From positions 128,001 through 192,000 of the forward strand of contig JBMNEZ010000001.1 in assembly GCA_050949045.1 (NCBI GenBank): a stretch of DNA of 64,000 bases, in the 5' to 3' direction. Source of the DNA: Candidatus Izemoplasmatales bacterium. Its GTDB lineage: Bacteria > Bacillota_I > Bacilli_A > Izemoplasmatales > Hujiaoplasmataceae. The notes under the pieces were generated by a model. It was not told the origin of the DNA. It saw only the letters and a list, made by a program, of their open reading frames with translations, and made no database searches. The position numbers and the translations under genes are program-made. Of the stretch, positions 15,957 to 45,181 are shown piece after piece; the stretch's first letter is position 1, and each line of letters opens with the position of its first letter.

Positions 15957-16669
15957 ACAAAATTACCTTGCCCCAACCAGTCCGCAAGTTCCATCAGAAA
16001 TTTCTTCTTTTTTGGATGACTGATTAGAAGCGTATCATCATTTTTCATCAATATCGTCATTCCGCTTATCGACTTGATATATCTTGGGTTGACCAAATAA
16101 CAGTTGTTGCAGCGCATAAAATTGTTGGGTTTCAAACGCTTTTCATATTCGGTTAACGATCCGGTAGCCACTACTGTCTCTTCATTGGTGTGAAAATGAA
16201 TTTTATGCCCGGTCACTTCTAAATACAACAATTCGCTGATTGGCAATCTAATAAAACCACGGGCTTTTGAGATCACAATCTCAGCATCTTGATTGGCTCT
16301 CACGATTTTCAGCGCTTTATCCATTTTTTGAGCTATGGTAGCGTAATTTACAGGCTTTACAACAAAATCTAAGGCATCGACCTCGTACCCCTTAACGGCA
16401 TATTGAGCCATGTTAGTAACAAAAATTATAATTACCTGTTTATCGGCCCGCCTTATTTTTCTAGCGGCTTCAAGTCCGTTGATATCAGGTATTTCGATAT
16501 CCATGAAGATAATATTGTAAATCTTTTTGTATTCCGATAAAAAACTGACCGCTTCATCAAATTTTTTAATATTCAATTTTACATTGTTTAATTCAGAGTA
16601 TTTTTTTAGATAATTTTCTATTAAGTTCGAATCAGATGCGTTGTCTTCTACAACGGCTACATTTATCAT
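15953..16669 (-). CDS. LytTR-family response regulator
   Basis: VVED, FMDIE, VKP receiver motifs; FMRCNNCYLVN LytTR domain. Confidence 0.93.
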   Translation of the reverse strand: MINVAVVEDNASDSNLIENYLKKYSELNNVKLNIKKFDEAVSFLSEYKKIYNIIFMDIEIPDINGLEAARKIRRADKQVIIIFVTNMAQYAVKGYEVDALDFVVKPVNYATIAQKMDKALKIVRANQDAEIVISKARGFIRLPISELLYLEVTGHKIHFHTNEETVVATGSLTEYEKRLKPNNFMRCNNCYLVNPRYIKSISGMTILMKNDDTLLISHPKKKKFLMELADWLGQGNFV

Positions 16670-19683: not shown

Positions 19684-20045
19684 CTTCTGCCTCCTCTTTT
19701 GGGCCTTTTCAATAAAACGGATATCTACAAAAAGCATATCACAGTATCAAACTTTTACATAGTCGATTTTGTGAAATATGGAGTGTCGTTGCCTTGGTTC
19801 GAGTATTTTTTCATCACTTTTAACCTGTTAATTTAACTAATTCATGTAATCAATCAATGCTTGTCATATCAATTATAACAGAAAACTACAAACTATTCTC
19901 AAAACTCATTTATGAGTTTGCTGGACTTATTTATGGTCGTGTTATCCAAATTATTTTGTATTTTGTATCGCCATATTGGTTGTTAATACAAATCATGTAT
20001 GAATATTGACAGATTATGCCCTGTTAATTTTATTGCGGAATCATT

Positions 20046-26850: not shown

Positions 26851-27473
26851 GCATTGAAAAGGGCAAAAAATAGCATTTGTTTTGTAATGTCTTTACATAA
26901 TTAATAACTTGATTGAAAGTACTTGTTTTCTAATAGTCTATCTTTCAAACCAATCAGCATTTTGCCTGATAGGTTTCAACACATCATATAAACTAGCAAT
27001 CGATAATTAATTAAATAATTATCTTGTTGCCGTTATTTTGTGAGGATTTCTAAGCGTATCCAATTCATATGCTTGGGTGAGATGGCAAATATTGTACTGT
27101 AATTTGACAAGAGCCTTTGATTGCACGAATATTTTTCTATTCAGAATTGCTTTGCGACTTAAAAATACTTGGAATCAATGGTTTTCTTTATGCAATTTAG
27201 TTGTTTTTGATCCGAACTTGTTTTTAAGGCTGAGCATCATAGTATAAATCTGTCAGCCATTCAGCGGCTATGTCTTGTGCTCGGCCTGGATAACCGTAAT
27301 TGAAGTTTCATATTCAAAATCATGTAGGTATTAATCAGCATAATAACTTTTATGATTTGAATTATAATTCAAACTAGGACAGTCGATTTTTCTTTATTCA
27401 GTATTAAATTTAGGTTAAATATATAATATAAATTTGACAATATTTTCCAATGATTTACAGAGGGGGAAAAAAG

Positions 27474-30431
27474 ATGAAGATAATATGGAAAAACTTAAGC
27501 ACAAGAATATGGCTAATCATATCAGCAATACTTTCTTTCTTAATGCTCATAACCATAATAGCTGTGCAAATACCGTTTTTGAGTCAAACGATGAATACAT
27601 TGTTTGGCGGAGAAAGAAGAATCATTACCAGCCCTTCCGGCGAGAGTTATATGTATTATGAATCTGATTACTTTTCGAAAGCGTTGACCTTGCAAGAGGC
27701 CAATAAACTTAACGAACAAATCGTCGGAGAAGGCGTAGTGCTTCTAAAAAATGATAATAACGCGCTTCCAATTACCGGCTCTAAAGATATTAGTGTTTTT
27801 GGCAAGAATTCAGTCAATCTAGTTTATGGCGGATCGGGATCCGGTGAAAAAAGCGATATGCTCGATACGGATTTATATAGCAGTTTAGAAGACGCGGGAT
27901 TTACGACAAATCCTATTTTAAAAGCGTTTTATAAAGATAACTCCAAGTCTGGTAACGGGCGACCAGCCAATCCTTCAATCGGCGCTCAGTTAACCGGATT
28001 TCCAACTGGAGAAACACCAATTTCAAGTTATACACAGGATGTCAGGAACAGTTATAACCAATATGATGACGCCGCGATTGTCGTTTTTTCGAGAATCGGC
28101 GGTGAGGGCTATGATCTTCCGAGAACGATGCAAGTAAGCTTTACTGATCCTTCTGCAGTAGAAGGGGCTTCCAGCGCCCAGGATCACTATCTTCAGCTAG
28201 ACGCCAATGAAAAGGCGCTTCTTGAAGAAGTAAAAGCAAACTTCAGCAAAGTAATCGTTTTGATCAACAGCGCTACGACGATGGAACTGGGCGATCTTCA
28301 AGACGATGATGAAATCGACAGTATTCTTTGGATTGCCACAACCGGAGGAACGGGAATCAATGCAGTAGGTGATGTGTTGAGCGGCAAGATCAACCCTTCC
28401 GGTCGTACTGTCGCGACATATGCAAGAAACTTTAGAAACGATCCGACTTGGCATAACTTCGCATATAACGGTGTTAAAAACGGCAACCGTTACGTGGTTG
28501 GCGAAATTAATAGACCGTTCTATTTCGTTGATTATGAGGAAGGCATCTATGTCGGGTACCGTTATTATGAAACCAGAGGATTTGAAGAGATAAAGGCCAA
28601 TCCAGCTAGCACGTGGTACGAAGACAATGTCGTTTATCCTTTTGGTTTCGGATTGAGTTATACATCGTTTAAATGGGAAATAAGCTCCACATCATACCCT
28701 GATGAGTCCGTCTTGACTAAAAACGGAGTTATTGAAGTGACAGTGAAAGTTAAAAACACAGGCACTGTAAAAGGCAAAGAAGTTGTCCAATTATATTACA
28801 CGGCGCCATATACGAATGGCGGCATCGAAAAAGCCCATGTCGTGTTGGGGGCATTTGCCAAGACCAATGTGCTAAATCCTAACCAAAGCCAAGAACTAAA
28901 ATTGAGCCTAAAAGTCATGGATATGGCATCTTATGATTATAATGATGCCAATAACAACGGATTTAAAGGTTATGAACTTGAAGGCGGGAACTATGAGATC
29001 AAAATTATGAAAAACGCTCATGAACTGGTTGATTCTCTGACATACTCGGTTCCTGCAGGTGGGTTCAAAGTCGACTCTGATACCGAGTATGGAGTTCAGC
29101 CTGAAAATCGTTTTGATGATGTCAGTTCCAAGATTAATAGTGTTAATGTCGAGCAAACCGGCGGAACGATGACACTTATGTCAAGGGCGAATTTCGCTGG
29201 CACGATGCCTTCGACACCGACTCTCGCCGATCGTACAGTTAGTTCCGGATTCATTGACAGTCTAGCCTATCCCCAACAACCATGGACTGTGGATCAGGGC
29301 AAGCCGTATTACACAGCTAATGCTCCGATTCAGGCAAGTTCGGAACTATCGGAAAACGAAGTCAATTTAATGCTTTACGACATGATCGGCGTCGCTTACG
29401 ATGATCCTTCATGGGACACTTTCCTCAACCAATTGACGGTCGGGCAGATGGCTACTCTGATTGGCAGCGGCAACTTCCACACCGAGCCGCTTGTCAACCT
29501 CGGAAAACCGCGGACAACGGATCCCGACGGACCTGTCGGGTTCACCAATTTCATGGAAATCGGCGAAGCCACCGTCTATGACACCTGTTTTTATGCCAGT
29601 CCCTCGATTGTCGCGGCCACTTGGAACGTCGAACTCGCTTTTGAACAAGGCAAGATGGTCGGCAACGAAGGCATTTGGGGGAATGACCGGGGCGATCAGG
29701 CTCCTTATTCGGGCTGGTACGCTCCCGCTGTCAATATCCACCGGACTCCCTTCTCGGGTAGGAACTGGGAATATTACAGTGAAGATGGATTCTTGTCGGG
29801 TAAAATGGCAGCCAATGTGATTTTGGGAGCGAAGGAAAAAGGGGTCTACACCTTTATCAAACACTTTGCCGTCAACGATCAGGAGACGAACCGCGATTCG
29901 AACGGCTTGTTGACATGGCTTGACGAGCAGACGATGCGCGAGATCTATTTGAAACCGTTCGAGATGGCTGTCAAGGAAGGCAAGACGACCGCGATTATGT
30001 CATCATTTAACAGACTCGGCAAGGTTTGGGCAGGCGGAAGCTACGAATTGCTGACGGAAGTGTTGCGGAACGAATGGGGATTTAAAGGCACGGTTATCAC
30101 CGACTACAACGTTTATGCCCATATGCCCGCAGACCAGATGATTCGTGCCGGTGGCGATTTGAACCTGATCCAAGACAAGCGTCCGACGACATCAAACGAA
30201 GCTTTGACCAGCACTCAGATATCATTGATGCGCCAAGCTTCAAAGAACATCCTGTTCACCGTAGTCAACAGCAACGCGATGAACGGCTTGGGGGCCAACG
30301 CCACCATCAGATACATTTTGCCGCGTTGGAAAGTTGCGATGATCATCATCGAAAGTTCAATTGCCGGGTTGATTATAATCTCCGGGGCCATCTTGATTAC
30401 TAGTGTTTACAAAAAGAAACCGATTGTTTAA
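27474..30431 (+). CDS. Membrane-anchored GH3 beta-glucosidase (reversed domain order, N- and C-terminal TM)
   Basis: Start ATG 27474 after [56 protein letters not shown]. Confidence 0.93.
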   Translation: MKIIWKNLSTRIWLIISAILSFLMLITIIAVQIPFLSQTMNTLFGGERRIITSPSGESYMYYESDYFSKALTLQEANKLNEQIVGEGVVLLKNDNNALPITGSKDISVFGKNSVNLVYGGSGSGEKSDMLDTDLYSSLEDAGFTTNPILKAFYKDNSKSGNGRPANPSIGAQLTGFPTGETPISSYTQDVRNSYNQYDDAAIVVFSRIGGEGYDLPRTMQVSFTDPSAVEGASSAQDHYLQLDANEKALLEEVKANFSKVIVLINSATTMELGDLQDDDEIDSILWIATTGGTGINAVGDVLSGKINPSGRTVATYARNFRNDPTWHNFAYNGVKNGNRYVVGEINRPFYFVDYEEGIYVGYRYYETRGFEEIKANPASTWYEDNVVYPFGFGLSYTSFKWEISSTSYPDESVLTKNGVIEVTVKVKNTGTVKGKEVVQLYYTAPYTNGGIEKAHVVLGAFAKTNVLNPNQSQELKLSLKVMDMASYDYNDANNNGFKGYELEGGNYEIKIMKNAHELVDSLTYSVPAGGFKVDSDTEYGVQPENRFDDVSSKINSVNVEQTGGTMTLMSRANFAGTMPSTPTLADRTVSSGFIDSLAYPQQPWTVDQGKPYYTANAPIQASSELSENEVNLMLYDMIGVAYDDPSWDTFLNQLTVGQMATLIGSGNFHTEPLVNLGKPRTTDPDGPVGFTNFMEIGEATVYDTCFYASPSIVAATWNVELAFEQGKMVGNEGIWGNDRGDQAPYSGWYAPAVNIHRTPFSGRNWEYYSEDGFLSGKMAANVILGAKEKGVYTFIKHFAVNDQETNRDSNGLLTWLDEQTMREIYLKPFEMAVKEGKTTAIMSSFNRLGKVWAGGSYELLTEVLRNEWGFKGTVITDYNVYAHMPADQMIRAGGDLNLIQDKRPTTSNEALTSTQISLMRQASKNILFTVVNSNAMNGLGANATIRYILPRWKVAMIIIESSIAGLIIISGAILITSVYKKKPIV

Positions 30432-30487
30432 TACTGATTTTTCAGCATCAAATCTGAAATAACGTCAAAACCTGTTAATCTTTACTA

Positions 30488-30528
30488 AAAATAGGTATCG
30501 TTTCCAACAAATGATACCTATTTTCTTT
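30488..30528 (+). terminator. Intrinsic terminator after GH3
   Basis: aaaataggtatcgttt / aaatgatacctatttt + cttt. Confidence 0.7.
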
Positions 30529-30738
30529 AAGGTGAGGAGAAGAGAGTCTTTTTTCATTGTAACATCGCCATAATTCTTTGGTTTATCAGGGCCTACTTTC
30601 AAGGACTTGCTTTACTAATGATATTCTTTTTCTCCTATACTAACATAAGGGTTGACCGCCTCCGCCTAGACGAAGTGTTTTTTCTCTAATTATTGAAGTT
30701 GAACTCAATTGTATCAATATGCAATAAGCTCAAATACA

Positions 30739-30771
30739 TAGAACAGCCGGCTTGACAAGCCGGCTGTTCTA
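30739..30771. repeat. Perfect 33-bp palindrome (probable terminator of the minus-strand operon); degenerate copy at about 36517-36547
   Basis: TAGAACAGCCGGCTTG-A-CAAGCCGGCTGTTCTA. Confidence 0.85.
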
Positions 30772-30828
30772 CATGTTATTAGAAGATGTTATGAAAGAAA
30801 CTTATAGGCATCAAATTTGATTAACGGA

Positions 30829-30864
30829 TTAGCTCAGTTTCATGCGAAATGTCAGAAATTTGTA
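30829..30864 (-). pseudogene. 3'-end vestige of the GT2 gene
   Basis: Translates YKFLTFRMKLS*, versus YKILTRRIKLG* at the end of the intact GT2 (36600-36635); downstream DNA also aligns (TAATCCGTTAATCAAATT vs TAATCCATTATTCGAATT). Confidence 0.75.
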
Positions 30865-30871
30865 GATGGGA

Positions 30872-31597
30872 TTAACTTTCCTTTTTTTCCAGTTCTTCTT
30901 TTTTCTCTTTACTTTGTGGGAATATGACTTTGAAGATTGGGAAGAATACCCAGAAGGAGATCGCGGAGTAGATGATCATGGTAATGAAGTCGGCGATCGT
31001 TTCACCGGTTGCGCCCCAACCCCAAATATTCATAAGCAAATTGTAGATCGGTACCGTGTACAACCCTCTGGCGGCCGAGGCAAAGATGGTTATCGCCACA
31101 TAGGCGACAGCGTACCAAAAAGCGGCCTTCCAGGGATTGCCATCGGATTTGAATGTGATGTTTCTTTGGGCAAAGAAGTTGATGACCTGGGCAATTAACA
31201 AAGTGATTTGAACAGCGAGGAAAAAGGCGAGACCGCCACCACCGCCGCTTGCCAGAGTCCCGGCTTTAAAATCAAAGATAAAGTAGTCCGACCCATCAAT
31301 GTTCTTCCCTAGTTGCCAGATTTGGAAATTAATGTTGATAAGATTGGTCTTCGCAAAAATGGCTTTCAGGATCGGCATCAAGATCATCTGTAAAACGGTA
31401 ACGCCGTTACTTAACATGAAAAACACAAGAAATTGAGCTACGTTCGGGAATCTCTTTTTGAACTTTTTCCAGAGATTGACCCACCATTGGACAAAACGGG
31501 ATTGACCTAACTTTCTAAAAAATTCTTTGACTTTACTTGGTTTTTCTTCTTGTGTGACCGGAGCTTCAACTTCGGCCATTTCTTTTTCTTCACTCAT
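30872..31597 (-). CDS. GtrA-like membrane protein
   Basis: 4 hydrophobic helices with the QFLVF...SN and INFFAQRNITFKS pattern typical of GtrA-like proteins; ATGA overlap with the GH3 stop. Confidence 0.6.
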   Translation of the reverse strand: MSEEKEMAEVEAPVTQEEKPSKVKEFFRKLGQSRFVQWWVNLWKKFKKRFPNVAQFLVFFMLSNGVTVLQMILMPILKAIFAKTNLININFQIWQLGKNIDGSDYFIFDFKAGTLASGGGGGLAFFLAVQITLLIAQVINFFAQRNITFKSDGNPWKAAFWYAVAYVAITIFASAARGLYTVPIYNLLMNIWGWGATGETIADFITMIIYSAISFWVFFPIFKVIFPQSKEKKEELEKKES

Positions 31598-34044
31598 GCC
31601 TCTTTCACCTTTCTATTTTTTGTTTTATTTTTCTTTGAACGTTTTTTTCCTTCCGCAAAGAATTTGCCCAAGCCTTTGAAGAAGCGGCCGTTGAACATCA
31701 TGATCAGGCCATCAAGCTGTCCCATGGTGATCATCCCGCCGGACATATGGGCGAGCCCTCGCATTGGCAAATGGAGAACTCCCATTGCCAGAGTATTGGA
31801 CAATGATCTCATTCCAAAGAAACGAAGGAACTTGATCGCAAAGCGGACGCCACCGGAAAAAGCTCTTCCGACCCACCGCTTGGAGTACCTCAACTGTTCA
31901 ACGGTCGTGTTGTATCCAACAACGAGGCGGTTCTTTTTATAAAAATCATATGTTGCCTTCGGCACGGGACGGCCGAGGATGTTTTCGAATTCTTCGCTTG
32001 AGACGTCTTGGATCTTACCTGTCGTATAAAGAGGAATCTTCGATAATGATACCGGCGACTTCAGTTCCGTTCCTGTGACAGAGACCACTTTGCTCAATTT
32101 GATATCTTGGGAGGAGGAGCCTACCATAATATCATAATCCGCAGTCTCGACTTCCCATTGATTGGTGAGCGGATTATAGGTTTCAAAGGCTTCCTTGTCG
32201 AGCTTGATCTTGACTGTCTTGCTTTCTCCTGGGCGGAGTTCGACTTTTGAGAATCCTTTTAGTTCTTTTTGTGGGCGGTAAACTTTTGAGTTCTTCGCGC
32301 GAATATAAACTTGGACAACCTCTTTGCCGGGCATTTTTCCGGTGTTCTTGAGTTTGAAACTCACTTCTTCAAAAGAGGCCGAGAGATCGGAATAAGCAAA
32401 AGAGGTATAGGACAGACCATAGCCGAATGGATATCTGGGTTTGACGCCGGCAGTATCGAAGTAGCGGTAACCGACATATAGGCCTTCGCGGTATTCGGCA
32501 GTCATCTGTTTGCCGGGATAATTTTGGGAAGTGGGCGTATCCTCATATTTGAAGGGAATCGTTTCGGAGAGTTTCCCCGAGGGATTCACCTTTCCGACAA
32601 GGATATTCAGTGCAGCTCTTGCGCCGGCTTGCCCTGCAAGCGAAGTATGGAGGATAGCGTCTGAACGATCCGCAAAATCCATTTCAACGGCACTGCCGCA
32701 AGCTAGGACAACGACAAGTTTCTTGCCGAGGCTGGCGAGTTTGTCGAACAACTCCATCTGATTAAGCGGCAGTTTGAGATTGCTGCGGTCGATTCCTTCG
32801 ACTTCGCTAAATTCGTCAAGACCGATATACAACAAGATTGTGTCTGCTTTCTTGGCAAGTTTGACTGCTTTTCTGATTCGACAGCTGCTTTTTCTGCCAT
32901 AGCGACTATAACCCTGCTCGTAACCAACGTATTGAAGATCATACTCACCAATGGCGTCAACGGCATTGTCCAGCTTTGTCGGATTTACTATCGAAGAGCC
33001 GGCTCCCTGATAACGAGGTTTCTTGGCGAAGTCACCGATGATGGCGACTTTCTCCTGTGACTTAAGCGGGAGAGCGCCCTTGTCATTTTTTAAAAGGACG
33101 ATTGACTCTTCCGCGATCTTCTGCGCTAACAGGTGATTGGCTTCGTTATCAATAACGACCTTGCTTTCCTTGACAGCTTTGCTTGTGTCAAAGATCAAAG
33201 TCAATAGTCTATCAAGGTTCTCGTCAAGCAGCGATTCGGGGATGGTTCCGTTTTTGACAGCCGCGACGATTTCGTCATTTGTCTCTCCGCCTGTGGTTGG
33301 CATTTCCAATTCATTTCCGGCTATCAATCCCTTAACCCGGTCGTTCGATCCGCCCCAGTCGCTGACGACAACTCCCGGGTACTTCCATTCTCCACGAAGG
33401 ATGTCTCGCATAAGGGGGATATTCTCATTGGTATATTCGCCGTTGACTTTGTTGTAAGAGGACATGATGACTTTCGGCTTTCCTTCTTTGATGCCGATTT
33501 CAAACGGTCTGAGGTAGATTTCTCTCAAGGTGCGTTCATCGATGATTGAATCAACGGCCATCCTTCGGAATTCCTGATTGTTGGCGGCGAAGTGTTTCAA
33601 ACAGCCGGAAACACCGGCTGACTGGATTCCTCTGATGTAAGCGGCGGCCATCTTTCCGGCAAGCAGGGGATCTTCGCTGAAATACTCGAAGTTACGTCCG
33701 CAGAGCGGGTTTCTTTTGATGTTGATTCCCGGGCCAAGGACAACGTTGACTTTCTGGCTGACTGCCTCTTTGCCGAGAGAAGTACCCAGCTCCTCACCGA
33801 GTTTTTCATCCCAGCTGTTGGCGACAGTGGCGGAAGTTGGATAGCACGTTGCCGGAATACTGGCATTTAGCCCTAACTGGTCGGCAGCGGCCGCTTGTTT
33901 CCTTAGACCGTGGGGCCCATCCGAAAGAAAAATACTGGGAATTCCGAGTTTCTCCAGATTCATTGTGGTCCAGAAGTCTTTACCCGACATAAAAGAGGCT
34001 TTTTCTTCCAAAGTCATTTTCTGGATGATTGCTTGATTTTTCAT
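31594..34044 (-). CDS. GH3 beta-glucosidase, cytoplasmic, canonical domain order (copy A)
   Basis: [47 protein letters not shown]; start set at ATG 34044 to match copy B (816 aa). Confidence 0.93.
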   Translation of the reverse strand: MKNQAIIQKMTLEEKASFMSGKDFWTTMNLEKLGIPSIFLSDGPHGLRKQAAAADQLGLNASIPATCYPTSATVANSWDEKLGEELGTSLGKEAVSQKVNVVLGPGINIKRNPLCGRNFEYFSEDPLLAGKMAAAYIRGIQSAGVSGCLKHFAANNQEFRRMAVDSIIDERTLREIYLRPFEIGIKEGKPKVIMSSYNKVNGEYTNENIPLMRDILRGEWKYPGVVVSDWGGSNDRVKGLIAGNELEMPTTGGETNDEIVAAVKNGTIPESLLDENLDRLLTLIFDTSKAVKESKVVIDNEANHLLAQKIAEESIVLLKNDKGALPLKSQEKVAIIGDFAKKPRYQGAGSSIVNPTKLDNAVDAIGEYDLQYVGYEQGYSRYGRKSSCRIRKAVKLAKKADTILLYIGLDEFSEVEGIDRSNLKLPLNQMELFDKLASLGKKLVVVLACGSAVEMDFADRSDAILHTSLAGQAGARAALNILVGKVNPSGKLSETIPFKYEDTPTSQNYPGKQMTAEYREGLYVGYRYFDTAGVKPRYPFGYGLSYTSFAYSDLSASFEEVSFKLKNTGKMPGKEVVQVYIRAKNSKVYRPQKELKGFSKVELRPGESKTVKIKLDKEAFETYNPLTNQWEVETADYDIMVGSSSQDIKLSKVVSVTGTELKSPVSLSKIPLYTTGKIQDVSSEEFENILGRPVPKATYDFYKKNRLVVGYNTTVEQLRYSKRWVGRAFSGGVRFAIKFLRFFGMRSLSNTLAMGVLHLPMRGLAHMSGGMITMGQLDGLIMMFNGRFFKGLGKFFAEGKKRSKKNKTKNRKVKEA

Positions 34045-34129
34045 AATTAAGGATCGTCCAATCTGTATGAAATTTTGAAAAACTAGCGACAATGTCTTTA
34101 TTGACTTAAGCGCTAACAACTATATTAAC

Positions 34130-34192
34130 ATTCTATCATATAAATAAGATAGCGCCACGACATTGAGCATATTTTGTTGATATCTAGGCATA
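34130..34192 (-). promoter_or_regulatory. Promoter of GH3 copy A: extended -10 plus candidate LytTR direct repeats
   Basis: Minus strand TATGCCTA (34185-34192) and TATGCTCA (34164-34171) with a 21-bp period; poor -35; TGaTAGAAT at 34130-34138. Confidence 0.5.
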
Positions 34193-34197
34193 CATTG

Positions 34198-35553
34198 TCA
34201 AGTTTCCGCACGAGGAATGGGAATCAAAATGATCAAGCGAAACCAGTTGTTGCTAGTTGTGATTGAGACGTTTCCTCCGTACTTTTCGACGGTGCTTTTG
34301 ATACTTTTGAGCCTGTATCCATGGAAGCGAGTGTCTTTCTTGGTAGTAACGAAATTTCCATGAGAGATTTGAAGCGGATTCAAGTAAAAGTTCTCGAACC
34401 GAATCAACAACAATTCATTTTCTGCATAGGTTGCAATTTTGATCAATCGCTTCTCTTTGTCATCGATTTTGAGGACGCTTTCGATCGCATTGTCAATCGC
34501 ATTTCCGAAGATCGAACAAAGATCCATCGCCGAAATGAAATTTAACAGTTTTCCATCTGCGATACAAGTAACGATGATATTATTATCGAGACAAGTGATC
34601 AGTTTTGATGTCAAGATCGTGTCAAGAACCTCATTCCCAGTCTTATACTGGGCCTCGTAATACTTGATGCTGTTCTCCAAATCTTCTAGATATTTTTTAC
34701 GGATGTCAGCGTCTTTTTCAGTACGGATGGCGATGATTTGGTTCTTCAAATCATGATATTTCTGATTGATGATATTGATACTGTCTTGTGATATGCGATA
34801 TTGCTCGTATTGTTTATACAAGAGGGTTTCCATTGCATTAAGATCCATTTTTGACTTAACATTTAATTTGTGCTCTCTTTGGGAGTAAAGAATCAAGATT
34901 CCGGCGAAATCGACAAGCATGCGGATAATTAAAATTTCAGTAGGGTATCTGCCGGAAAGAGGTGTATTGGAACTAATAAAACTGATATTGCTGATGAGAA
35001 AGATCATGATGCCGATGCTGGCAAAAGATAAAAAATCGTTTCGATTAACCTCAATGGTTATTCCTTTTTTCAAATAGCGAGATTCGATCATCAAGAAAAC
35101 CAGAAAGACAAGTCCATAAATCAAGACTAAAAACAACTCATCAAAAAAAACAAAAGAAATATTGAAAGTCCGAATAGTATAACGATACATATGCCAGTAA
35201 AGAGAGGTAGCGAACTCAGAAATCACGAAAGCAAGAACCGTGATGTATCCCGCGTTGTTAATACTTTGCTTAGTTGTAGTATAGATGAAAAGAAACATTA
35301 ACAGAAAAGCAAAGATCGTTCTCAGAATCCATAGTTTCAGTGGGAAAGTACTTGTCAGCAATTGAAAACCGATCATTGTGATAGCAAAACCGACAATTGT
35401 TAAATACAAAATGACTTTCTTAAGGCGTTTTTTGGCAAGTATGATAAAAATTAAACAAAACAGCCATTCTGCAATTCCGGCATATAATCTGATTCTGGTA
35501 TATAATTCGATTCTGGCAAATAATCCGGGAATAATAAGTAACAATTCGGTCAT
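34198..35553 (-). CDS. Membrane sensor histidine kinase (GHKL, LytTR-associated)
   Basis: About 7 TM segments, YHDLKNQ, FGNAIDNAIE, TTK..HGYRLKSI (Arg where Gly is expected). Confidence 0.88.
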   Translation of the reverse strand: MTELLLIIPGLFARIELYTRIRLYAGIAEWLFCLIFIILAKKRLKKVILYLTIVGFAITMIGFQLLTSTFPLKLWILRTIFAFLLMFLFIYTTTKQSINNAGYITVLAFVISEFATSLYWHMYRYTIRTFNISFVFFDELFLVLIYGLVFLVFLMIESRYLKKGITIEVNRNDFLSFASIGIMIFLISNISFISSNTPLSGRYPTEILIIRMLVDFAGILILYSQREHKLNVKSKMDLNAMETLLYKQYEQYRISQDSINIINQKYHDLKNQIIAIRTEKDADIRKKYLEDLENSIKYYEAQYKTGNEVLDTILTSKLITCLDNNIIVTCIADGKLLNFISAMDLCSIFGNAIDNAIESVLKIDDKEKRLIKIATYAENELLLIRFENFYLNPLQISHGNFVTTKKDTRFHGYRLKSIKSTVEKYGGNVSITTSNNWFRLIILIPIPRAET

Positions 35554-36260
35554 GCTTTGCCTCCAAAATGATTAGCTAAGGCTTCGAGAAATTCCTTTTT
35601 TCTAGGTCTGCTAATCTTGAGTTCGGCATTGTTGACGATCACGAAATCACCTTTGACACCCTTGACTTTATCAAGGTTGACAAGGAAACAGTTGTTACAC
35701 CTGAAAAACTGGCCTTCATTCAACTCCCCTTCAATCTTCTTCAAGGGCATTCTTAATGTGTGATCTCCGTTTTTTTCGTGAACGATTAGATAATGTTTCA
35801 TCGTTTCAACATAAAATATTTCGTTGATGTTGACACGCACAACGCCGTCTTTGGTTGTTAGGAGAAGTGATTTGTCTTTTCGCGATTTAATTTTGGTGAT
35901 TGAGTAACTGATCTCTTGTGAAAAAGCGAAGTAGGGGACCGGTTTCAGCAAGAAACTGTGTGCCTTGACTTCATATCCTTTTATTGCATACTGAGGCATA
36001 TTGGTGATGAAGATGATGATGACTTCTTTGTCAAACTCACGGATTTTCTTAGCGGCCGACATTCCATCAAGGCGTTTCATCTCAATGTCTAAAAGGATGA
36101 TATCGTAATTCGGCTTATAGTAAGTTGCGATCTCATCACCATCTTGAAACTTTGTGATGTCTATGATGACATCATTTTCTTTTTCATACCTTTTGAGCAA
36201 TTTTTCAAGGACATCCATGCATTCGGGATTGTCTTCGACGATTGCGACCTTGATTCTCAT
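35550..36260 (-). CDS. LytTR-family response regulator
   Basis: IVED, LLDIE, LKP; FFRCNNCFLVN; ISRPRKK; GAGGTG RBS. Confidence 0.93.
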   Translation of the reverse strand: MRIKVAIVEDNPECMDVLEKLLKRYEKENDVIIDITKFQDGDEIATYYKPNYDIILLDIEMKRLDGMSAAKKIREFDKEVIIIFITNMPQYAIKGYEVKAHSFLLKPVPYFAFSQEISYSITKIKSRKDKSLLLTTKDGVVRVNINEIFYVETMKHYLIVHEKNGDHTLRMPLKKIEGELNEGQFFRCNNCFLVNLDKVKGVKGDFVIVNNAELKISRPRKKEFLEALANHFGGKA

Positions 36261-36482
36261 TGTTCACCTCTAGACATAAGGAGATCAGTTACTTTTTTCA
36301 ATCGTTATAACAAAATGATGCTAACTATTGAAAAACAAACTCAGATACTGTAAAGGCATTGGTAAGACGCTGTACTCGGTGGGGAAAGACCATGCCGGTA
36401 ATAGAGAGCCCCATTTAGCAGACTTTAATAAAAAAGGGGTAATAAGCAACACCAATAGTTTATTGAATTGCTTTCTAATCAG
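36257..36482 (-). pseudogene. Collapsed vestige of the lgt-family gene
   Basis: 36441-36482 matches lgt 41006-41047 at 40/42 nt; gtggggaaagacca (36379) = 40703-40716; 36257-36382 aligns with the lgt 3' end 40355-40491, including the ATGA overlap with the RR start. Confidence 0.85.
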
Positions 36483-36599
36483 GTAGACCCTATTTTTTGA
36501 CCCTTATGGCTATACATAACAACCGGCTTGTCAAACCGACTATTTTAATATCATATAAATGTAACGAAGCAACTATAGATAACGAATTCGAATAATGGA

Positions 36600-37637
36600 T
36601 TAACCCAGTTTGATACGGCGAGTCAATATTTTATATCCGGCGGTCATTATGATGCCCCTGAGACGCCAGGGCAGCCAATTGACTATCACAGGCATTCCCC
36701 TCCATCTAAGGAAACGGTAGAGATCACGGTCACGATCCTTGACATATTTCCATAATTTAGACAAGGCTTGGCGCCGTTCTTTTCCGTCTTTTGCGACCGT
36801 GAAGAAGATCGTGATCATCATGATGGCCGACAGACAGTGAAGCATATATCTTCTAAGACCTTTCTCCATCTTCATGATTTGGGCATAACTATGTGCGTTG
36901 ATCATTTCCTTCATCACTCTGATTTGCTGGTCATATCGGTTGGTGAAAACACGGATATTGACGGATTGATCCACACGTCCGATGAAGTAGTGATAAAGGT
37001 TGATGTCAAGATAGTAGAGATTCTGCATTTCTGGAAGCGGGGCATAGGAATAGATATTGTCGACATAAAACGTATGGTGAGGCAACTTAAGCCCGCTTTT
37101 GCGCAATTTTTCTGTTTTGTAGGTCAGCGAATGCATCATGATGACCTGGGCGGCATAAAATTTTCCAACTTGTGACCATCTTAAAAAGCAGTTGCTTTTG
37201 AAATGGCGTGAGAAGCGCCTGACAAAAAATTTGCCCTCATTAACTTTGTCATAGACAAAGTTCGTAATGTAGAGGTCTGGCAGTTTCTTTTCCAAAAGGT
37301 GCTCTTTGATTGTCGATAGCAATGTATGAAGTGACGACGTGTCAAGCCAGTCGTCGGAATCGACAACTTTGAAATAGAGTCCGGTCGCATTTTCCAAGCC
37401 GGCATTTACACCAGATCCGTGGCCACCATTGGCTTGGGAGATCACCTTGACGATATTTGGGTATTTTTTTTCATATTGACGGGCAATCTTTTCAGTGCCA
37501 TCGGTCGACCCATCATTAATGATGATGATCTCGACCTCGTCGCCGCCGGGGATCAACGAATCCAAGCAATGTGACAAATAAGCTTCGGAATTATACGCGG
37601 GCACAGCGAATGTAAGAAACTTTTCTTTAGGCGCCAT
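36600..37637 (-). CDS. Glycosyltransferase family 2
   Basis: VPAYN, INDGSTD, NGGHG, VDSDD, YVDN, YFIGR..QS. Confidence 0.92.
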   Translation of the reverse strand: MAPKEKFLTFAVPAYNSEAYLSHCLDSLIPGGDEVEIIIINDGSTDGTEKIARQYEKKYPNIVKVISQANGGHGSGVNAGLENATGLYFKVVDSDDWLDTSSLHTLLSTIKEHLLEKKLPDLYITNFVYDKVNEGKFFVRRFSRHFKSNCFLRWSQVGKFYAAQVIMMHSLTYKTEKLRKSGLKLPHHTFYVDNIYSYAPLPEMQNLYYLDINLYHYFIGRVDQSVNIRVFTNRYDQQIRVMKEMINAHSYAQIMKMEKGLRRYMLHCLSAIMMITIFFTVAKDGKERRQALSKLWKYVKDRDRDLYRFLRWRGMPVIVNWLPWRLRGIIMTAGYKILTRRIKLG

Positions 37638-37640
37638 TGA

Positions 37641-37676
37641 CTAATCTTCCTTTTCGGTCATTTTTTCTTTACTCAT
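37641..37676 (-). pseudogene. 11-codon vestige of the GtrA-like gene (in-frame N-/C-terminal fusion)
   Basis: ATG AGT AAA GAA AAA ATG ACC GAA AAG GAA GAT TAG = MSKEKMTEKED*; the intact gene starts MSEEKEMAE, ends EKKES* and has the same ATGA overlap with GH3. Confidence 0.7.
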
Positions 37677-40123
37677 ACACTTGTCGCTTGAGTTTTCTTT
37701 GCTTTATTTTTCTTTGAACGTTTTCTTCCTTCCGCAAAGAATTTGCCCAAGCCTTTGAAGAAGCGGCCGTTGAACATCATGATCAGGCCATCAAGCTGTC
37801 CCATGGTGATCATCCCGCCGGACATATGGGCAAGCCCTCGCATTGGCAGATGGAGAACTCCCATTGCCAGAGTGTTGGATAATGATCTCATTCCAAAGAA
37901 ACGAAGGAACTTGATCGCGAAGCGGACGCCACCGGAAAAAGCTCTTCCGACCCACCGCTTGGAGTACCTCAACTGTTCAACGGTCGTGTTGTATCCAACA
38001 ACGAGGCGGTTCTTTTTATAAAAATCATATGTTGCCTTCGGCACGGGACGGCCGAGGATGTTTTCGAATTCTTCGCTTGAGACGTCTTGGATCTTACCTG
38101 TCGTATAAAGAGGAATCTTCGATAATGATACCGGCGACTTCAGTTCCGTTCCTGTGACAGAGACCACTTTGCTCAATTTGATATCTTGGGAGGAGGAGCC
38201 TACCATAATATCATAATCCGCAGTCTCGACTTCCCATTGATTGGTGAGCGGATTATAGGTTTCAAAGGCTTCCTTGTCGAGCTTGATCTTGACTGTCTTG
38301 CTTTCTCCTGGGCGGAGTTCGACTTTTGAGAATCCTTTTAGTTCTTTTTGTGGGCGGTAAACTTTTGAGTTCTTCGCGCGAATATAAACTTGGACAACCT
38401 CTTTGCCGGGCATTTTTCCGGTGTTCTTGAGTTTGAAACTCACTTCTTCAAAAGAGGCCGAGAGATCGGAATAAGCAAAAGAGGTATAGGACAGACCATA
38501 GCCGAATGGATATCTGGGTTTGACGCCGGCAGTATCGAAGTAGCGGTAACCGACATATAGGCCTTCGCGGTATTCGGCAGTCATCTGTTTGCCGGGATAA
38601 TTTTGGGAAGTGGGCGTATCCTCATATTTGAAGGGAATCGTTTCGGAGAGTTTCCCCGAGGGATTCACCTTTCCGACAAGGATATTCAGTGCAGCTCTTG
38701 CGCCGGCTTGCCCTGCAAGCGAAGTATGGAGGATAGCGTCTGAACGATCCGCAAAATCCATTTCAACGGCACTGCCGCAAGCTAGGACAACGACAAGTTT
38801 CTTGCCGAGGCTGGCGAGTTTGTCGAACAACTCCATCTGATTAAGCGGCAGTTTGAGATTGCTGCGGTCGATTCCTTCGACTTCGTTAAATTCGTCAAGA
38901 CCGATATACAACAAGATTGTGTCTGCTTTCTTGGCAAGTTTGACTGCTTTTCTGATTCGACAGCTGCTTTTTCTGCCATAGCGACTATAACCCTGCTCGT
39001 AACCAACGTATTGAAGATCATACTCACCAATGGCGTCAACGGCATTGTCCAGCTTTGTCGGATTTACTATTGAAGATCCGGCTCCCTGATAACGAGGTTT
39101 CTTGGCGAAGTCACCGATGATGGCGACTTTCTCCTGTGACTTAAGCGGGAGAGCGCCCTTGTCATTTTTTAAAAGGACGATTGACTCTTCCGCGATCTTC
39201 TGCGCTAACAGGTGATTGGCTTCGTTATCAATAACGACCTTGCTTTCCTTGACAGCTTTGCTTGTGTCAAAGATCAAAGTCAATAGTCTATCAAGGTTCT
39301 CGTCAAGCAGCGATTCGGGGATGGTTCCGTTTTTGACAGCCGCGACGATTTCGTCATTTGTCTCTCCGCCTGTGGTTGGCATTTCCAATTCATTTCCGGC
39401 TATCAATCCCTTAACCCGGTCGTTCGATCCGCCCCAGTCGCTGACGACAACTCCCGGGTACTTCCATTCTCCACGAAGGATGTCTCGCATAAGGGGGATA
39501 TTCTCATTGGTATATTCGCCGTTGACTTTGTTGTAAGAGGACATGATGACTTTCGGCTTTCCTTCTTTGATGCCGATTTCAAACGGTCTGAGGTAGATTT
39601 CTCTCAAGGTGCGTTCATCGATGATTGAATCAACGGCCATCCTTCGGAATTCCTGATTGTTGGCGGCGAAGTGTTTCAAACAGCCGGAAACACCGGCTGA
39701 CTGGATTCCTCTGATGTAAGCGGCGGCCATCTTTCCGGCAAGCAGGGGATCTTCGCTGAAATACTCGAAGTTACGTCCGCAGAGCGGGTTTCTTTTGATG
39801 TTGATTCCCGGGCCAAGGACAACGTTGACTTTCTGGCTGACTGCCTCTTTGCCGAGAGAAGTACCCAGCTCCTCACCGAGTTTTTCATCCCAGCTATTGG
39901 CGACAGTGGCGGAAGTTGGATAGCACGTTGCCGGAATACTGGCATTTAGCCCTAACTGGTCGGCAGCGGCCGCTTGTTTCCTTAGACCGTGGGGCCCATC
40001 CGAAAGAAAAATACTGGGAATTCCGAGTTTCTCCAGATTCATTGTGGTCCAGAAGTCTTTACCTGACATAAAAGAGGCTTTTTCTTCCAAAGTCATTTTC
40101 TGGATGATTGCTTGATTTTTCAT
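37673..40123 (-). CDS. GH3 beta-glucosidase (copy B, near-identical to 31594-34044)
   Basis: Same motifs; offset 6079 bp; GGAGG RBS. Confidence 0.94.
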   Translation of the reverse strand: MKNQAIIQKMTLEEKASFMSGKDFWTTMNLEKLGIPSIFLSDGPHGLRKQAAAADQLGLNASIPATCYPTSATVANSWDEKLGEELGTSLGKEAVSQKVNVVLGPGINIKRNPLCGRNFEYFSEDPLLAGKMAAAYIRGIQSAGVSGCLKHFAANNQEFRRMAVDSIIDERTLREIYLRPFEIGIKEGKPKVIMSSYNKVNGEYTNENIPLMRDILRGEWKYPGVVVSDWGGSNDRVKGLIAGNELEMPTTGGETNDEIVAAVKNGTIPESLLDENLDRLLTLIFDTSKAVKESKVVIDNEANHLLAQKIAEESIVLLKNDKGALPLKSQEKVAIIGDFAKKPRYQGAGSSIVNPTKLDNAVDAIGEYDLQYVGYEQGYSRYGRKSSCRIRKAVKLAKKADTILLYIGLDEFNEVEGIDRSNLKLPLNQMELFDKLASLGKKLVVVLACGSAVEMDFADRSDAILHTSLAGQAGARAALNILVGKVNPSGKLSETIPFKYEDTPTSQNYPGKQMTAEYREGLYVGYRYFDTAGVKPRYPFGYGLSYTSFAYSDLSASFEEVSFKLKNTGKMPGKEVVQVYIRAKNSKVYRPQKELKGFSKVELRPGESKTVKIKLDKEAFETYNPLTNQWEVETADYDIMVGSSSQDIKLSKVVSVTGTELKSPVSLSKIPLYTTGKIQDVSSEEFENILGRPVPKATYDFYKKNRLVVGYNTTVEQLRYSKRWVGRAFSGGVRFAIKFLRFFGMRSLSNTLAMGVLHLPMRGLAHMSGGMITMGQLDGLIMMFNGRFFKGLGKFFAEGRKRSKKNKAKKTQATSV

Positions 40124-40264
40124 AATTAAGGATCCTCCAATTTGTATTAAATTTTAAATAATACCAGCAACTATGTCTTTTAAAGGATTTAGCGCTGACA
40201 TCTATTACTGATATTCTATCATAAATACAAGAATGCATGCCATAATAATAATGAAATTTACTAT

Positions 40265-40358
40265 TGTTAAAATTTTAGCGTATTGATAATAAAGATTAAA
40301 AATGACTTTCTTGTCAATTTCGTGGAATTTCTTCGATGAACACGAAAATGATTCTCAT
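40265..40358 (-). pseudogene. Collapsed vestige of the LytTR response regulator
   Basis: Begins MRIIFVFIE (intact MRIKVAIVE) overlapping the lgt stop as ATGA, then GACAAGAAAGTCATTTTTAATCTTTATTATCAATACG aligns with intact GACAAAGAAGTCATCATCATCTTCATCACCAATATG (DKEVIIIFITNM). Confidence 0.75.
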
Positions 40359-41170
40359 TGTTCACTTTTAGAAATAGGCAAGTCAGTTGCCTTCTTGTTT
40401 GTTTTTGCTTTGCATAGCAAAATGATGCCAGTTATCATGAGTAAGAAACTCAAATACTGTGAAGGGGTTGGAAAAACATTGTGTTCAGTGGTGATGAAGC
40501 CAAAGATACTGCCGCGGTCGTCTCCGCGGATCAGTTCCAACAATATCCTCCAGCCGCCGTAGGCGATAAGATATGTTTCCAGTTGATAACCCCTCAAGCA
40601 TTTGAGATTGGCAAGCACGAAAAACAAAACGAACAGAAATAACGCTTCGAACAACTGAACCGGAAAGAGAGGAATTCCAGGAAAGGCATCATGAGCATGG
40701 CCGTGGGGAAAGACCACACCGAGAAAGGAATCAGTCGGAATTCCGTAACAACAGCCGGCTAGGAAACAACCGATCCGACCAAAGGCATGCGCAAGGACAA
40801 CACCGATGATCACAGTGTCCATAATGCTTTTTATGCCTCTGTTATCAGCTTTATAGACGAACTTCAAGAGAACAAGCAAACAGGCGACGCCGCCGATAAG
40901 GCCACCGAGGAAAGAGATCGTTCCGAAAGACCACTTGCCCTCTTTGATGGAATGGAATATCCCATCGAACAAGAATGAGGAGAACAAAGCGAATAACAAA
41001 GAGACAATAAGCAACACCAATAGTTTATTGGATTGCTTTCTATTCAGCCCGTCATGATTCTCGAGTCTTCTGGCAACGAAAACGAGCATTAACAATACTC
41101 CCACACAAATCATCAAGTCATATAGAGGAATAGTATAGCCGAACACTTCCGGCAACAAGAATGGATACAT
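40355..41170 (-). CDS. lgt: Prolipoprotein diacylglyceryl transferase (Lgt)-family protein
   Basis: MYP start (ATG 41170, GAGGGG RBS); SFLGGLIGG, GRIGCFLAGCCYG, FPVQLFE, RILLELIRGD; Cys-rich paralog-type motif. Confidence 0.8.
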   Translation of the reverse strand: MYPFLLPEVFGYTIPLYDLMICVGVLLMLVFVARRLENHDGLNRKQSNKLLVLLIVSLLFALFSSFLFDGIFHSIKEGKWSFGTISFLGGLIGGVACLLVLLKFVYKADNRGIKSIMDTVIIGVVLAHAFGRIGCFLAGCCYGIPTDSFLGVVFPHGHAHDAFPGIPLFPVQLFEALFLFVLFFVLANLKCLRGYQLETYLIAYGGWRILLELIRGDDRGSIFGFITTEHNVFPTPSQYLSFLLMITGIILLCKAKTNKKATDLPISKSEQ

Positions 41171-41360
41171 GGGACCCCTCCTTATCAAATATTGTATCAT
41201 TTGTTGGCATATTCACGCACTCTCTTTAATGAATTAGGTATGAAAATATTGTTTGAGAAGGATTTTCATCATCTCATCGACAGAATCAATATAGATGTAT
41301 GATAAAATATAATTGAATGATACGATAGAAAACAAAAATAAAAAAGGCAGGTGCATCATT

Positions 41361-42760: not shown

Positions 42761-45181
42761 ATGAAAAAACTAATTATGTTAGGTTTCGCATCTCTTTTTT
42801 TTATTGCTCTCGTAGCTTGTGACGAACTTACTAGCATATCGGGCTTGCCGACTAATCCCTTTACGACAATAAGCGATGTCGTGACAACCACTACCACTGA
42901 CACCGAGACCACTTCAGTTGGTCAAAAAACAACAACCATTACTACCGTACCGGTTACGACCACTGCACCAACAACCAAAGTTACTACTGCACCGGTTACG
43001 ACAGCGGTACCAACAACTACTGTTACTACTGTACCGGTTACTACAACGATGCCAACAACCACTGTTACTACTGCACCGGTGACAACAACAGAGGAACCAA
43101 TCGAAGAAGATCCTTTTGTTCCGGGAGCTGGAGGTGTTCTTGCCGAAAGGGCACCGTCAGAAAACGCAGAAGGAAAATTCGGAGGTCTCATGCTCGCCAA
43201 GGTCAATTGCTGGCGAAGCATTGTAGGTACCGATTACTTTGTCGAGATAGATTTCCCCTCTCCTAGCCAGTTTGATGGAACATCATATACCTTACAGTAT
43301 TATGACACAGTCAGTTCGACATGGAAAGACTATGTATATTATGATAGGACTGTGACATTTACAGATGAAAATAACGGTTATTACGGTTTAACTGTGTCTG
43401 AGTCTCGAACTTTGAGGTTACTTTTGAATGGCGGTCCCATGGCGGGATACACATCCAATGAAGAAAGTTATACTTTGCCAACAATCAAATGCCGTTTCGA
43501 CAGCTACACTGTCGATATGAGTATCAATGAGGAAGGCATCATGTACCCTTACGTCGGTTTCACAACAAGAGCTTCCTTTGAAGCCACCAACTTCGAGGGT
43601 GAAACCGATATCGATGTGACAAATACGCTGATTTACAAGTGGTATCGTGTTGATCCGGTTACTTATAAGCAAACCTTGATCGCTTCTGCGACCGGGCAGA
43701 CCGAATACGATGCGACAATGGATGATGCCGGCTACTATATCATGGTGAGGGCAGAAGGAGACCAAAACAGCTCCTCGGGTTTTTGGCAGGTATTGGTCGG
43801 GCCTGTCGTTGTCGCTAACCCTTGCTTTGTCAGAAACGAGAGCGCTACCGGATTCACTGTCAATCTTTACTATGAAGTTTCAGGGCTCGATCCGGCTTTG
43901 TTTGAGATTTTCGATCAGGACTGGAATGAAGTTGATATTCTTTCCATTGTCAAGGGAGAAAATGATGCAACCTATATCATCACTATCGATGATGCGACCA
44001 TCACCAACTTTTACTCGATCGCCTATAATAGCGGGTTTTGGACAATGCAGTTCAATATGTCCATGGGCGGTGGAGAATTCCATCATTTCACCGAGATATT
44101 GTTTGTCGAAGTTATACCGACAGAAGGAGAAGGAGAGCAAGAAGATCCCTTTATTCCGGGAGTTGGGGGTGTTCTTGCTGAAAGAACGCCGTCAGAAAAC
44201 GCAGAAGGGAAATTTGGAGGTCTTATAATCACCGAGGCCGATTGCTGGCCAGGTTTTTCGGAGTCTCCTGAATACCGGGTTATCATTAATTACCTTTCCC
44301 CTGGCCTATTTGGTGGAACATCGTATACCTTACAGTATTATGATACAGCCAGTTCGACATGGAAAAACTATATGCATAATGATGAGGTTTTGACATTAAC
44401 GACAGAAGTTGATGATTATTACGGTCTTGCCACTTTAACTGTATCCGAGGCTCGTACTTTGAGGTTGCTTTTAAATGGCGGTCCCATGGCGGGATACACA
44501 TCCAATGAAGATAGTTATATTCTGCCAACGATTAAATGCCGTTTCGACGGCTATGCTATCGATATGACCATCAACGAGGAAGGCATTATATACCCTTACG
44601 CCGGTTTCACATTGAGAGCTTCCTTTTCCGCCATCAATTTTGCGGGGGAAACCGATGTCGATGTGTCAGATACGCTGATTTACAAGTGGTATCGCGTTGA
44701 TCCGGTCACCTATGAGCAGACCTTGATCGCTGCCGCGACCGGACAGACCGAATACGATACAACGATGGCCGATGCCGGCTACTATATCATGGTCAAGGCA
44801 GAGGGAGACCAAACCAACTCCTCGGGTGTATATCAGGTATTGATTGATTCTATCGTCGTTGCCGTTAACCCTTGCTTTGTCAGAAACGAAAGCGCCACCG
44901 GATTTACTGTCAATCTTTACTATGAAGTTGCAGAGATCAATCCGGATTTGTTTGAGATCTTCGATCAAGATGAAAATGAAGTTGATGTCCTATCCATCGT
45001 CAAGGGTGAGAATGACGCAACCTATATCATCACTATCGATGATGCGACCATAACTAACTTTTACACAATCGCCTATAGCACAGAGTCTTGGGCGATGCAG
45101 TTCTATACGCTCATGAGCGATGGAGAAACCTATTATTACAGCGAGATGTGGTTTGTCGAACTTGAACCGATAGAAGAATAA
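42761..45181 (+). CDS. Acidic lipoprotein of unknown function with a Thr-rich linker and two ~345-aa repeats
   Basis: Lipobox LVA-C; 14-aa T/P/V repeats; GAGGAG RBS; repeat units start EDPF(V/I)PG. Confidence 0.85.
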   Translation: MKKLIMLGFASLFFIALVACDELTSISGLPTNPFTTISDVVTTTTTDTETTSVGQKTTTITTVPVTTTAPTTKVTTAPVTTAVPTTTVTTVPVTTTMPTTTVTTAPVTTTEEPIEEDPFVPGAGGVLAERAPSENAEGKFGGLMLAKVNCWRSIVGTDYFVEIDFPSPSQFDGTSYTLQYYDTVSSTWKDYVYYDRTVTFTDENNGYYGLTVSESRTLRLLLNGGPMAGYTSNEESYTLPTIKCRFDSYTVDMSINEEGIMYPYVGFTTRASFEATNFEGETDIDVTNTLIYKWYRVDPVTYKQTLIASATGQTEYDATMDDAGYYIMVRAEGDQNSSSGFWQVLVGPVVVANPCFVRNESATGFTVNLYYEVSGLDPALFEIFDQDWNEVDILSIVKGENDATYIITIDDATITNFYSIAYNSGFWTMQFNMSMGGGEFHHFTEILFVEVIPTEGEGEQEDPFIPGVGGVLAERTPSENAEGKFGGLIITEADCWPGFSESPEYRVIINYLSPGLFGGTSYTLQYYDTASSTWKNYMHNDEVLTLTTEVDDYYGLATLTVSEARTLRLLLNGGPMAGYTSNEDSYILPTIKCRFDGYAIDMTINEEGIIYPYAGFTLRASFSAINFAGETDVDVSDTLIYKWYRVDPVTYEQTLIAAATGQTEYDTTMADAGYYIMVKAEGDQTNSSGVYQVLIDSIVVAVNPCFVRNESATGFTVNLYYEVAEINPDLFEIFDQDENEVDVLSIVKGENDATYIITIDDATITNFYTIAYSTESWAMQFYTLMSDGETYYYSEMWFVELEPIEE
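43106..45178 (+). repeat. Internal duplication with a 1035-bp period
   Basis: gaagatcc starts at 43106 and 44141; long identical blocks such as aatggcggtcccatggcgggatacacatccaatgaaga. Confidence 0.9.

Follow-up and report, generated by a model that had tools for sequence, protein, structure and literature searches.

The window analysed here, 64,000 nucleotides (G000:C1:128001-192000) of the genome of an uncultured digester bacterium whose nearest named relatives by gtrA are Candidatus Izemoplasmatales (G000; single contig, 1.36 Mb, 98% complete), holds a minus-strand locus with the gene order lgt-GH3-GT2-RR-HK-GH3-gtrA, in which RR is a LytTR response regulator and HK a GHKL sensor kinase. 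The locus very probably descends from two tandem copies of an operon lgt-RR-HK-GH3-gtrA-GT2, reduced by deletions to lgt-GH3-GT2 (right copy) and RR-HK-GH3-gtrA (left copy), with the GH3 pair likely converted and the arrangement likely held by selection. Nine congeners (G001 to G009) were compared, and loci related to the cassette (labelled L) were taken from the best 80 of 392 loci found with gtrA. From right to left, the locus comprises:

40355-41200, minus strand: lgt-family gene, intact, right copy (PF01790; below the NCBIfam lgt cut-offs)
40278-40358, minus strand: RR vestige in which the RR 5′ end abuts an internal RR piece and the ribosome-binding site has decayed (20/29, 17/23 and 17/24 matches to the live RR)
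40124-40277, minus strand: right GH3 promoter region, which retains a putative extended -10 and has lost the LytTR-type repeat pair (84/109 matches to its left counterpart)
37673-40123, minus strand: GH3 beta-glycosidase, right copy, intact, 816 residues
37641-37676, minus strand: gtrA vestige made of the first ~24 and the last ~12 bases, which form an 11-codon frame (8/9, 10/11 and 9/12 to the live gtrA; translation)
36600-37637, minus strand: GT2 glycosyltransferase, intact (PF00535)
36512-36547, minus strand: terminator-like hairpin, weakened copy (-8.6 versus -28.8 kcal/mol)
36257-36510, minus strand: lgt vestige in several blocks (36/38, 19/23, 36/50, 18/22 and 27/35; outermost block 12/17)
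36402-36444, plus strand: IS3-type left-end remnant, 43 bases, inside the lgt vestige (four other genomic copies; full element in L167 and L159)
35550-36260, minus strand: LytTR response regulator (RR), intact, left copy (PF00072 and PF04397)
34198-35553, minus strand: GHKL sensor kinase (HK), intact, left copy (PF14501)
34167-34200, minus strand: direct-repeat pair of period 21 in the left GH3 promoter, a predicted LytTR binding site (repeat matrix)
31594-34044, minus strand: GH3 beta-glycosidase, left copy, intact, 816 residues from ATG
30872-31597, minus strand: GtrA-like membrane protein, intact (PF04138 below cut-off, 21.8 versus 26.1 bits; orthologues of 79-87% in relatives)
30829-30864, minus strand: GT2 vestige, 3′ end with stop codon (24/36 ungapped at the expected place)
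30739-30771: perfect 33-base palindrome, likely a bidirectional terminator, facing the convergent GH3 gene at 27450-30431

An earlier, sequence-only reading of this DNA had named these genes, and Pfam agrees for lgt, RR, HK, GH3 and GT2, with GtrA falling below the cut-off. The GH3 enzymes of the locus are closest to beta-glucosidases. The lgt of the locus is a second, non-canonical one, the canonical lgt lying elsewhere in the genome (G000:C1:1290709).

The ancestral single order that had been predicted, lgt-RR-HK-GH3-gtrA-GT2, is present in three congeners. G008 carries glf, this operon, a CAAX-protease gene and a convergent GH3 gene on one contig, glf and the convergent GH3 being its flanks just as in G000; G004 and G006 have the same single-copy order, each split over two contigs, and G005 carries the cassette without lgt. 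In an rpoB and gyrB tree G000 is sister to the single-copy G004 (support of 100 with DNA and 80 with protein), which makes the single copy ancestral and the double form derived. The proposal that an ancestral operon was duplicated and that all genes except GH3 returned to single copy is thus borne out by the outgroup order, by vestiges in register and by the single-copy state of five of the six genes.

Self-comparison of the locus, suggested as a check, recovers the GH3 repeat (97.9%), two lgt pieces and the terminator region. Vestiges were also aligned locally to their live copies and compared with 2000 dinucleotide shuffles. No shuffle equalled the lgt pieces 36482-36427 (50/56 matches) and 36356-36307 (41/52), the internal RR piece 40333-40278 (41/56), or the GT2 3′ end with its terminator, 30846-30734 (83/113); the lgt piece 36392-36379 (14/14) was equalled twice. 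The ungapped 24/36 match of the GT2 vestige at its expected position is equalled at only one other of ~2.7 million genome positions. All four vestiges are thereby confirmed as real, the gtrA vestige being weak alone yet in register; the expectation that vestiges stand out from shuffled sequence holds for lgt, RR and the GT2 end plus terminator, but not for gtrA or the GT2 stretch taken singly. Their proposed extents needed correction. The lgt vestige, given as 36257-36482, does consist of homologous lgt blocks, but 36402-36444 within it is an insertion-sequence (IS) end, and the RR vestige, given as 40265-40358, ends at ~40278, with 40277-40265 belonging to the GH3 promoter. HK is absent from the right copy as stated: a shuffle-based search there found no remnant, the best HK match (22/2000 shuffles) being already accounted for by RR. 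The ATGA overlaps of lgt/RR and GH3/gtrA described as kept are both in the sequence; that of lgt/RR is lineage-specific, G004 and G008 having a gap of ~28 bases.

With IS-derived bases removed, mismatches to the live genes occur at 76 of 329 sites in the vestige blocks. These differences are spread over codon positions as 25:19:32, versus 131:77:408 in the live orthologues of G000 and G004 (Fisher p=7e-5), and when polarised with outgroups (an earlier block set that included 18 IS-derived bases) 30 changes fall on vestiges, three on live genes and 39 are ambiguous. The pattern is that of decay after loss of function. The first lgt block matches the lgt of its own genome far better (50/56) than those of relatives (29-34/56), which points to an origin of both copies within the same lineage; the extended lgt 3′ end in the vestige likewise matches its own live copy at 27/35 positions and relatives at <=8/35.

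The duplication would have been a tandem event of ~8 kb that postdates the divergence from G004 and was joined between the terminator and the 5′ part of lgt; the boundary of the two copies falls near 36511, immediately behind the hairpin. No counterpart of the first ~125 bases of lgt remains in the left copy, so the left lgt may have been cut at the birth of the duplication instead of being lost later. Inactivation, including an IS3-type insertion in the left lgt, would have been followed by deletions rejoined at CCAC, TATT, AAGA-AATCC and TATGC. For the left lgt, the simplest path would start with an IS insertion near lgt 40725; a deletion running from within the element to lgt 41006 would have rejoined at TATT, and a further one, of 215 bases, at CCAC. 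This CCAC join is the gtgg microhomology at 40703/40488 noted earlier and is present in the sequence. In the right copy, a shared AAGA-AATCC word marks the join of the RR 5′ end to the internal RR piece, and a shared TATGC word the join of that piece to the GH3 promoter; everything else of RR, and the whole of HK, has been deleted. Four more left ends of the IS element lie at G000:C1 65171-65356, 837947-838104, 1096864-1097047 and 1321700-1321813. The full elements of L167 and L159 have terminal inverted repeats and HTH_Tnp_1 and rve open reading frames, an architecture (terminal inverted repeats around orfA with HTH and orfB with the rve integrase) that we take to be IS3-type; the window holds the 43-base left end only.

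Remnants would have survived mainly where they hold a signal of a neighbour. The putative ribosome-binding site of RR lies in the dead lgt 3′ end and the likely one of GT2 in the dead gtrA; a presumptive GH3 promoter stands behind the dead RR, and a presumptive terminator behind the dead GT2. By contrast with these, the purine-rich sites before the dead RR and the dead gtrA, read as their own ribosome-binding sites, have decayed. The palindromes are perfect on the left and decayed on the right, as described earlier (-28.8 versus -8.6 kcal/mol); the middle hairpin may have weakened for lack of a converging gene, or because transcription reads through it into RR-HK. Of the CAAX-protease gene that follows GT2 in relatives no remnant was found at 30432-30740, between the terminator and the convergent GH3 gene. 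A CAAX-protease gene 49% identical to it lies just outside the window (G000:C1 120907-121740).

DNA matching the locus was found in digester and bioreactor metagenomes. Five of the 14 DNA runs in which at least half of the query words occur were examined (X5, X6, X7, X12 and X13), from five studies, none flagged as a possible source of the assembly. The unique loop (GH3 end-GT2-dead lgt-RR-HK-GH3 start) is present in all five. One contig runs from GT2 through the dead lgt, RR and HK to the GH3 start (X5 record 9); two run from the GH3 end through the dead gtrA, GT2 and the dead lgt to RR (X6 record 17 and X7 record 25); X12 record 6 links GH3 with the dead-RR spacer, X6 record 26 connects GH3, gtrA and the dead GT2, and X13 record 5 also bridges a new junction. 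Loop depth is about that of the flanks and GH3 depth is higher (29.5 versus 13-18.4 in X6; 4.7 versus 2.9 in X5), depth being no measure of copy number. In X6 and X7, many differences fall over the dead-RR spacer and lgt (40184-40784) and few over RR-dead lgt-GT2, which suggests a recombined block in those strains. Contigs of the RNA runs X15 and X16, which carry no level or strand, cover GH3, gtrA, GT2 and RR in patches and leave most of HK uncovered.

The GH3 repeat (31571-34149 and 37653-40232, 97.9% identical) is far more uniform than its surroundings. The copies differ at ten of the first 2385 bases and at 4/373 fourfold sites, versus 32/110 (29%) of third-position sites in the vestiges (Fisher p=1.5e-18); fourfold divergence to G004 and G008 is 63-66%. 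Identity drops at both edges, to 77% just upstream and again after codon 807; sites that tell the copies apart lie at codons 20, 76, 349-351, 413 and 735-816. At 38033, 38036 and 38057 in X6 and X7, and at the equivalent left-copy sites in X13 and X15, the entire depth consists of alleles that neither G000 copy has; X5 and X12 match G000 at those three sites. Because the GH3 copies are so much more alike than vestiges are to live genes, and because strains share alleles across copies, gene conversion has likely kept the pair near-identical. The genome has an intact recA. RecA-type recombination would keep converting the copies, and crossover products, which drop GT2, RR and HK, would not take over. 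Gene conversion and crossover share one pathway; together with the persistence of the pair through at least 23% decay and the loop in all five DNA runs, this argues indirectly that collapse is selected against, and the lock proposed in the sequence-only reading may hold in this way.

In relatives, a repeat pair of period 21 lies between HK and GH3. A repeat matrix was built from nine of 14 relatives' promoters, anchored by eye, with L082, L097, L118, L121 and L155 left out as having no clear period-21 pair. Its top score among 2,712,242 genome positions (27.1) is the left GH3 site, 34167-34200, and the right GH3 spacer scores -5.8, the pair having been lost. The right GH3-GT2 unit is therefore predicted to be free of RR control and the left GH3-gtrA unit to remain under the regulator. 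Ranked second (23.0) is a non-homologous site at 19986-20019 (plus strand), before a GH3 gene at 20292 that encodes 1732 residues with Ig repeats, with the same spacing to an extended -10; a third, weaker repeat set lies near G000:C1:958247-958268. A -35/-10 match at 40270-40242 was considered as a new sigma-70 promoter in the right spacer and rejected, such matches being at chance (21 sites versus 20.9 expected). A conserved motif lies downstream of the -10 in both GH3 promoters (34109-34118 and 40192-40201, minus strand), near 20075 (plus strand) and in relatives; we take it to resemble a cre/LacI-type operator.

G009 offers a partial parallel. Its locus holds lgt, remnants of the RR 3′ end and of both HK ends (0-1/1000 shuffles), GH3, a 72-base spacer and GT2, and it additionally carries a divergent RR-HK-GH3 that groups with G005. 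Since G009 falls outside the G000/G004/G003 clade, its loss of RR, HK and gtrA is independent; shared ancestry of the two sets of losses is excluded by the tree and by breakpoints that differ from those of G000. Reciprocity is only partly shown there: the resident GH3 promoter keeps the repeat pair (25.5 bits), the spacer did not beat shuffles as a gtrA vestige (534 and 636 of 1000), and gtrA was not found in this genome, which is 91% complete. Two-GH3 loci in Clostridium, Paenibacillus and others were considered as the same event and set aside as older paralogues, judged by their identity of 67-83%. Among them, L095, L126 and L130 (Clostridium) show the cassette as GH3-gtrA ... GH3-GT2 with paralogues 80-82% identical, an older instance of the same modular split.

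Several points weigh against the history proposed here. Neither a long read nor a contig reaches across both GH3 copies. Taken alone, the gtrA vestige is weak, being equalled by 31/2000 shuffles with the shared ATGA and by 1092/2000 without it, and the 47-base GT2 stretch alone is equalled by 592/2000 under free local alignment. The vestige blocks were selected because they are alignable, so their 23% divergence is a minimum. One allele of a repeat can go unseen in contigs, which leaves the shared strain alleles suggestive only, and the repeat matrix behind the top-ranked site includes promoters homologous to the left copy. G001, G002, G003 and G007 (74, 78, 100 and 97% complete) yielded no close orthologues of GT2, RR or gtrA; from this and from the canonical lgt elsewhere the operon genes look accessory, and they may be conditionally needed. 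The second LytTR response regulator and GHKL kinase pair, at 14679-16669 (minus strand) upstream of rhamnosidase, MFS transporter, GH2 and GH3 genes, might cover a loss of RR-HK and could also read the predicted repeat sites.

Other origins of the locus were weighed against tandem duplication and decay. An assembly chimera of two strains' loci, named at the outset as what would overturn that history, could be suspected in a genome that is probably metagenome-derived and contains a 2.5 kb repeat that short-read contigs cannot cross; with the unique loop bridged in contigs of five independent runs, and with loop depth near that of the flanks and GH3 depth higher, it is extremely improbable. Separate events, in which an old local rearrangement left the vestiges and GH3 alone was duplicated recently, would need no conversion and would suit the 1.1% fourfold divergence of the pair; however, a gtrA start comes after each GH3 copy and a homologous promoter, which has diverged to 77% identity, before it, all vestiges stand in one register and strains share alleles across the copies, so that this course of events is very improbable. 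Somewhat less remote, though still improbable, is a second copy from a conspecific or very close donor, integrated in tandem (a merodiploid) and then decaying in the same way. The RR and HK trees are slightly unlike those of lgt, gtrA and glf inside the G000/G004/G006/G008 clade, but inner-node support there is <=79, the vestiges share lineage-specific features with the live copies, and the differences are not concentrated at third positions.

For the later steps of this history, random losses, with the regulatory split as a by-product and GH3 double by chance or dosage, have somewhat less than an even chance of being the whole account. In G009 the resident GH3 promoter still has its repeat pair, so the decoupling was not repeated; 17 of the 80 loci compared hold two GH3 paralogues of this subfamily (67-83% identical), in keeping with a general advantage of additional copies; and the -35/-10 match of the right spacer is no better than chance. 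Against randomness, G009 independently lost the same three genes from its lgt-linked copy, a weak support given about three free choices. The alternative that resolution was directed is tentative and rather unlikely: the lgt-linked copy would shed RR, HK and gtrA (G000 and G009) and in G000 also its LytTR site, yielding a constitutive GH3-GT2 and an inducible GH3-gtrA, with a GH3 pair that recombines yet cannot collapse. If true, this would make the locus a natural end-stage case of rearrangement by selection during niche adaptation (SNAP), locked by accessory genes through regulatory subfunctionalisation.

The gene-order process itself is already known. In tandem duplication and random loss (TDRL), as described for animal mitochondrial genomes, a contiguous segment is duplicated in tandem, redundant copies are lost and gene order is permuted (PMC3283314). 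The match to TDRL that the sequence-only reading drew stands for the tandem segment duplication and for the change from lgt-RR-HK-GH3-gtrA-GT2 to lgt-GH3-GT2-RR-HK-GH3-gtrA. It differs in that this is a bacterial accessory operon with GH3 kept twice and homogenised: one copy was lost for five of six genes, which makes it an incomplete TDRL, and randomness is doubtful, the same three genes being gone in G009 and G000 (n=2) with the repeats kept in the G009 promoter. SNAP involves duplication and asymmetric inactivation in both arms, after which the earlier gene order is not regained (Brandis and Hughes 2020, PMC7055797; Cao et al. 2022, PMC9016547; PMC8046335), with a lock through essential genes over large segments that starts with selection in a new niche (PMC7055797, PMC9016547). 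The 2020 paper proposes a search for pseudogenes paired with matching active copies, as the telltale signature, and describes direct evidence from modern genomes as lacking (PMC7055797). The locus fits this signature, with outgroups, direction, breakpoints and population data, and resembles a late stage with inactivation in both arms; unlike SNAP, it spans ~8 kb and its genes look accessory. It is not put forward as a proven SNAP case because the essential-gene feature is missing: orthologues were not found in four of nine congeners (two of them 97-100% complete), and a second lgt is present.

Concerted evolution of prokaryotic paralogues such as tuf, which are more alike within a genome than to orthologues, is described in one study (PMC6053082). 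The GH3 paralogues behave likewise, being more alike than the age of the duplication allows; they differ in forming an accessory glycosidase pair, a direct repeat 3.6 kb apart in which a crossover would delete the genes between. LytTR promoters have two imperfect direct repeats of period 21 just upstream of the promoter (PMC6193735), a period and placement shared by the predicted site here, whose repeat sequence differs. The bacterial SNAP counterpart and the GH3 homogenisation are additions to the sequence-only reading. A literature search that covered few subscription journals turned up neither a naturally occurring bacterial case with vestiges nor a paper on this locus; the value of the locus lies in its unusual completeness as a natural example. 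It also exposes two traps: a gene pair 98% identical can be far older than it appears, and scars of 36-250 bases that gene callers overlook carry the history.

The region around the locus is devoted to glycan use and holds additional GH3, GH2, rhamnosidase and transporter genes, as well as the second LytTR/GHKL pair. The cassette of RR-HK, GH3, gtrA-like, GT2 and glf recurs in varied gene order among the best 80 of 392 loci. Presumably a sugar released by GH3 or supplied by Glf is handled by GT2 and GtrA at the membrane, as family knowledge would have it. An Rfam scan gave a single match at chance level (23.4 bits versus a cut-off of 114). Within the 1732-residue GH3 protein, 23846-25357 (plus strand) holds internal repeats with a period of ~270 bases that encode putative Ig domains. 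A lipoprotein-like open reading frame of 806 residues at 42761-45181 (plus strand) contains an internal duplication of ~1035 bases, 81% identical. Elsewhere on the contig, G000:C1 648781-650045 and 653156-654416 form a direct repeat of 1.27 kb whose copies are 83% identical and lie 4.4 kb apart; it may be another old local duplication.

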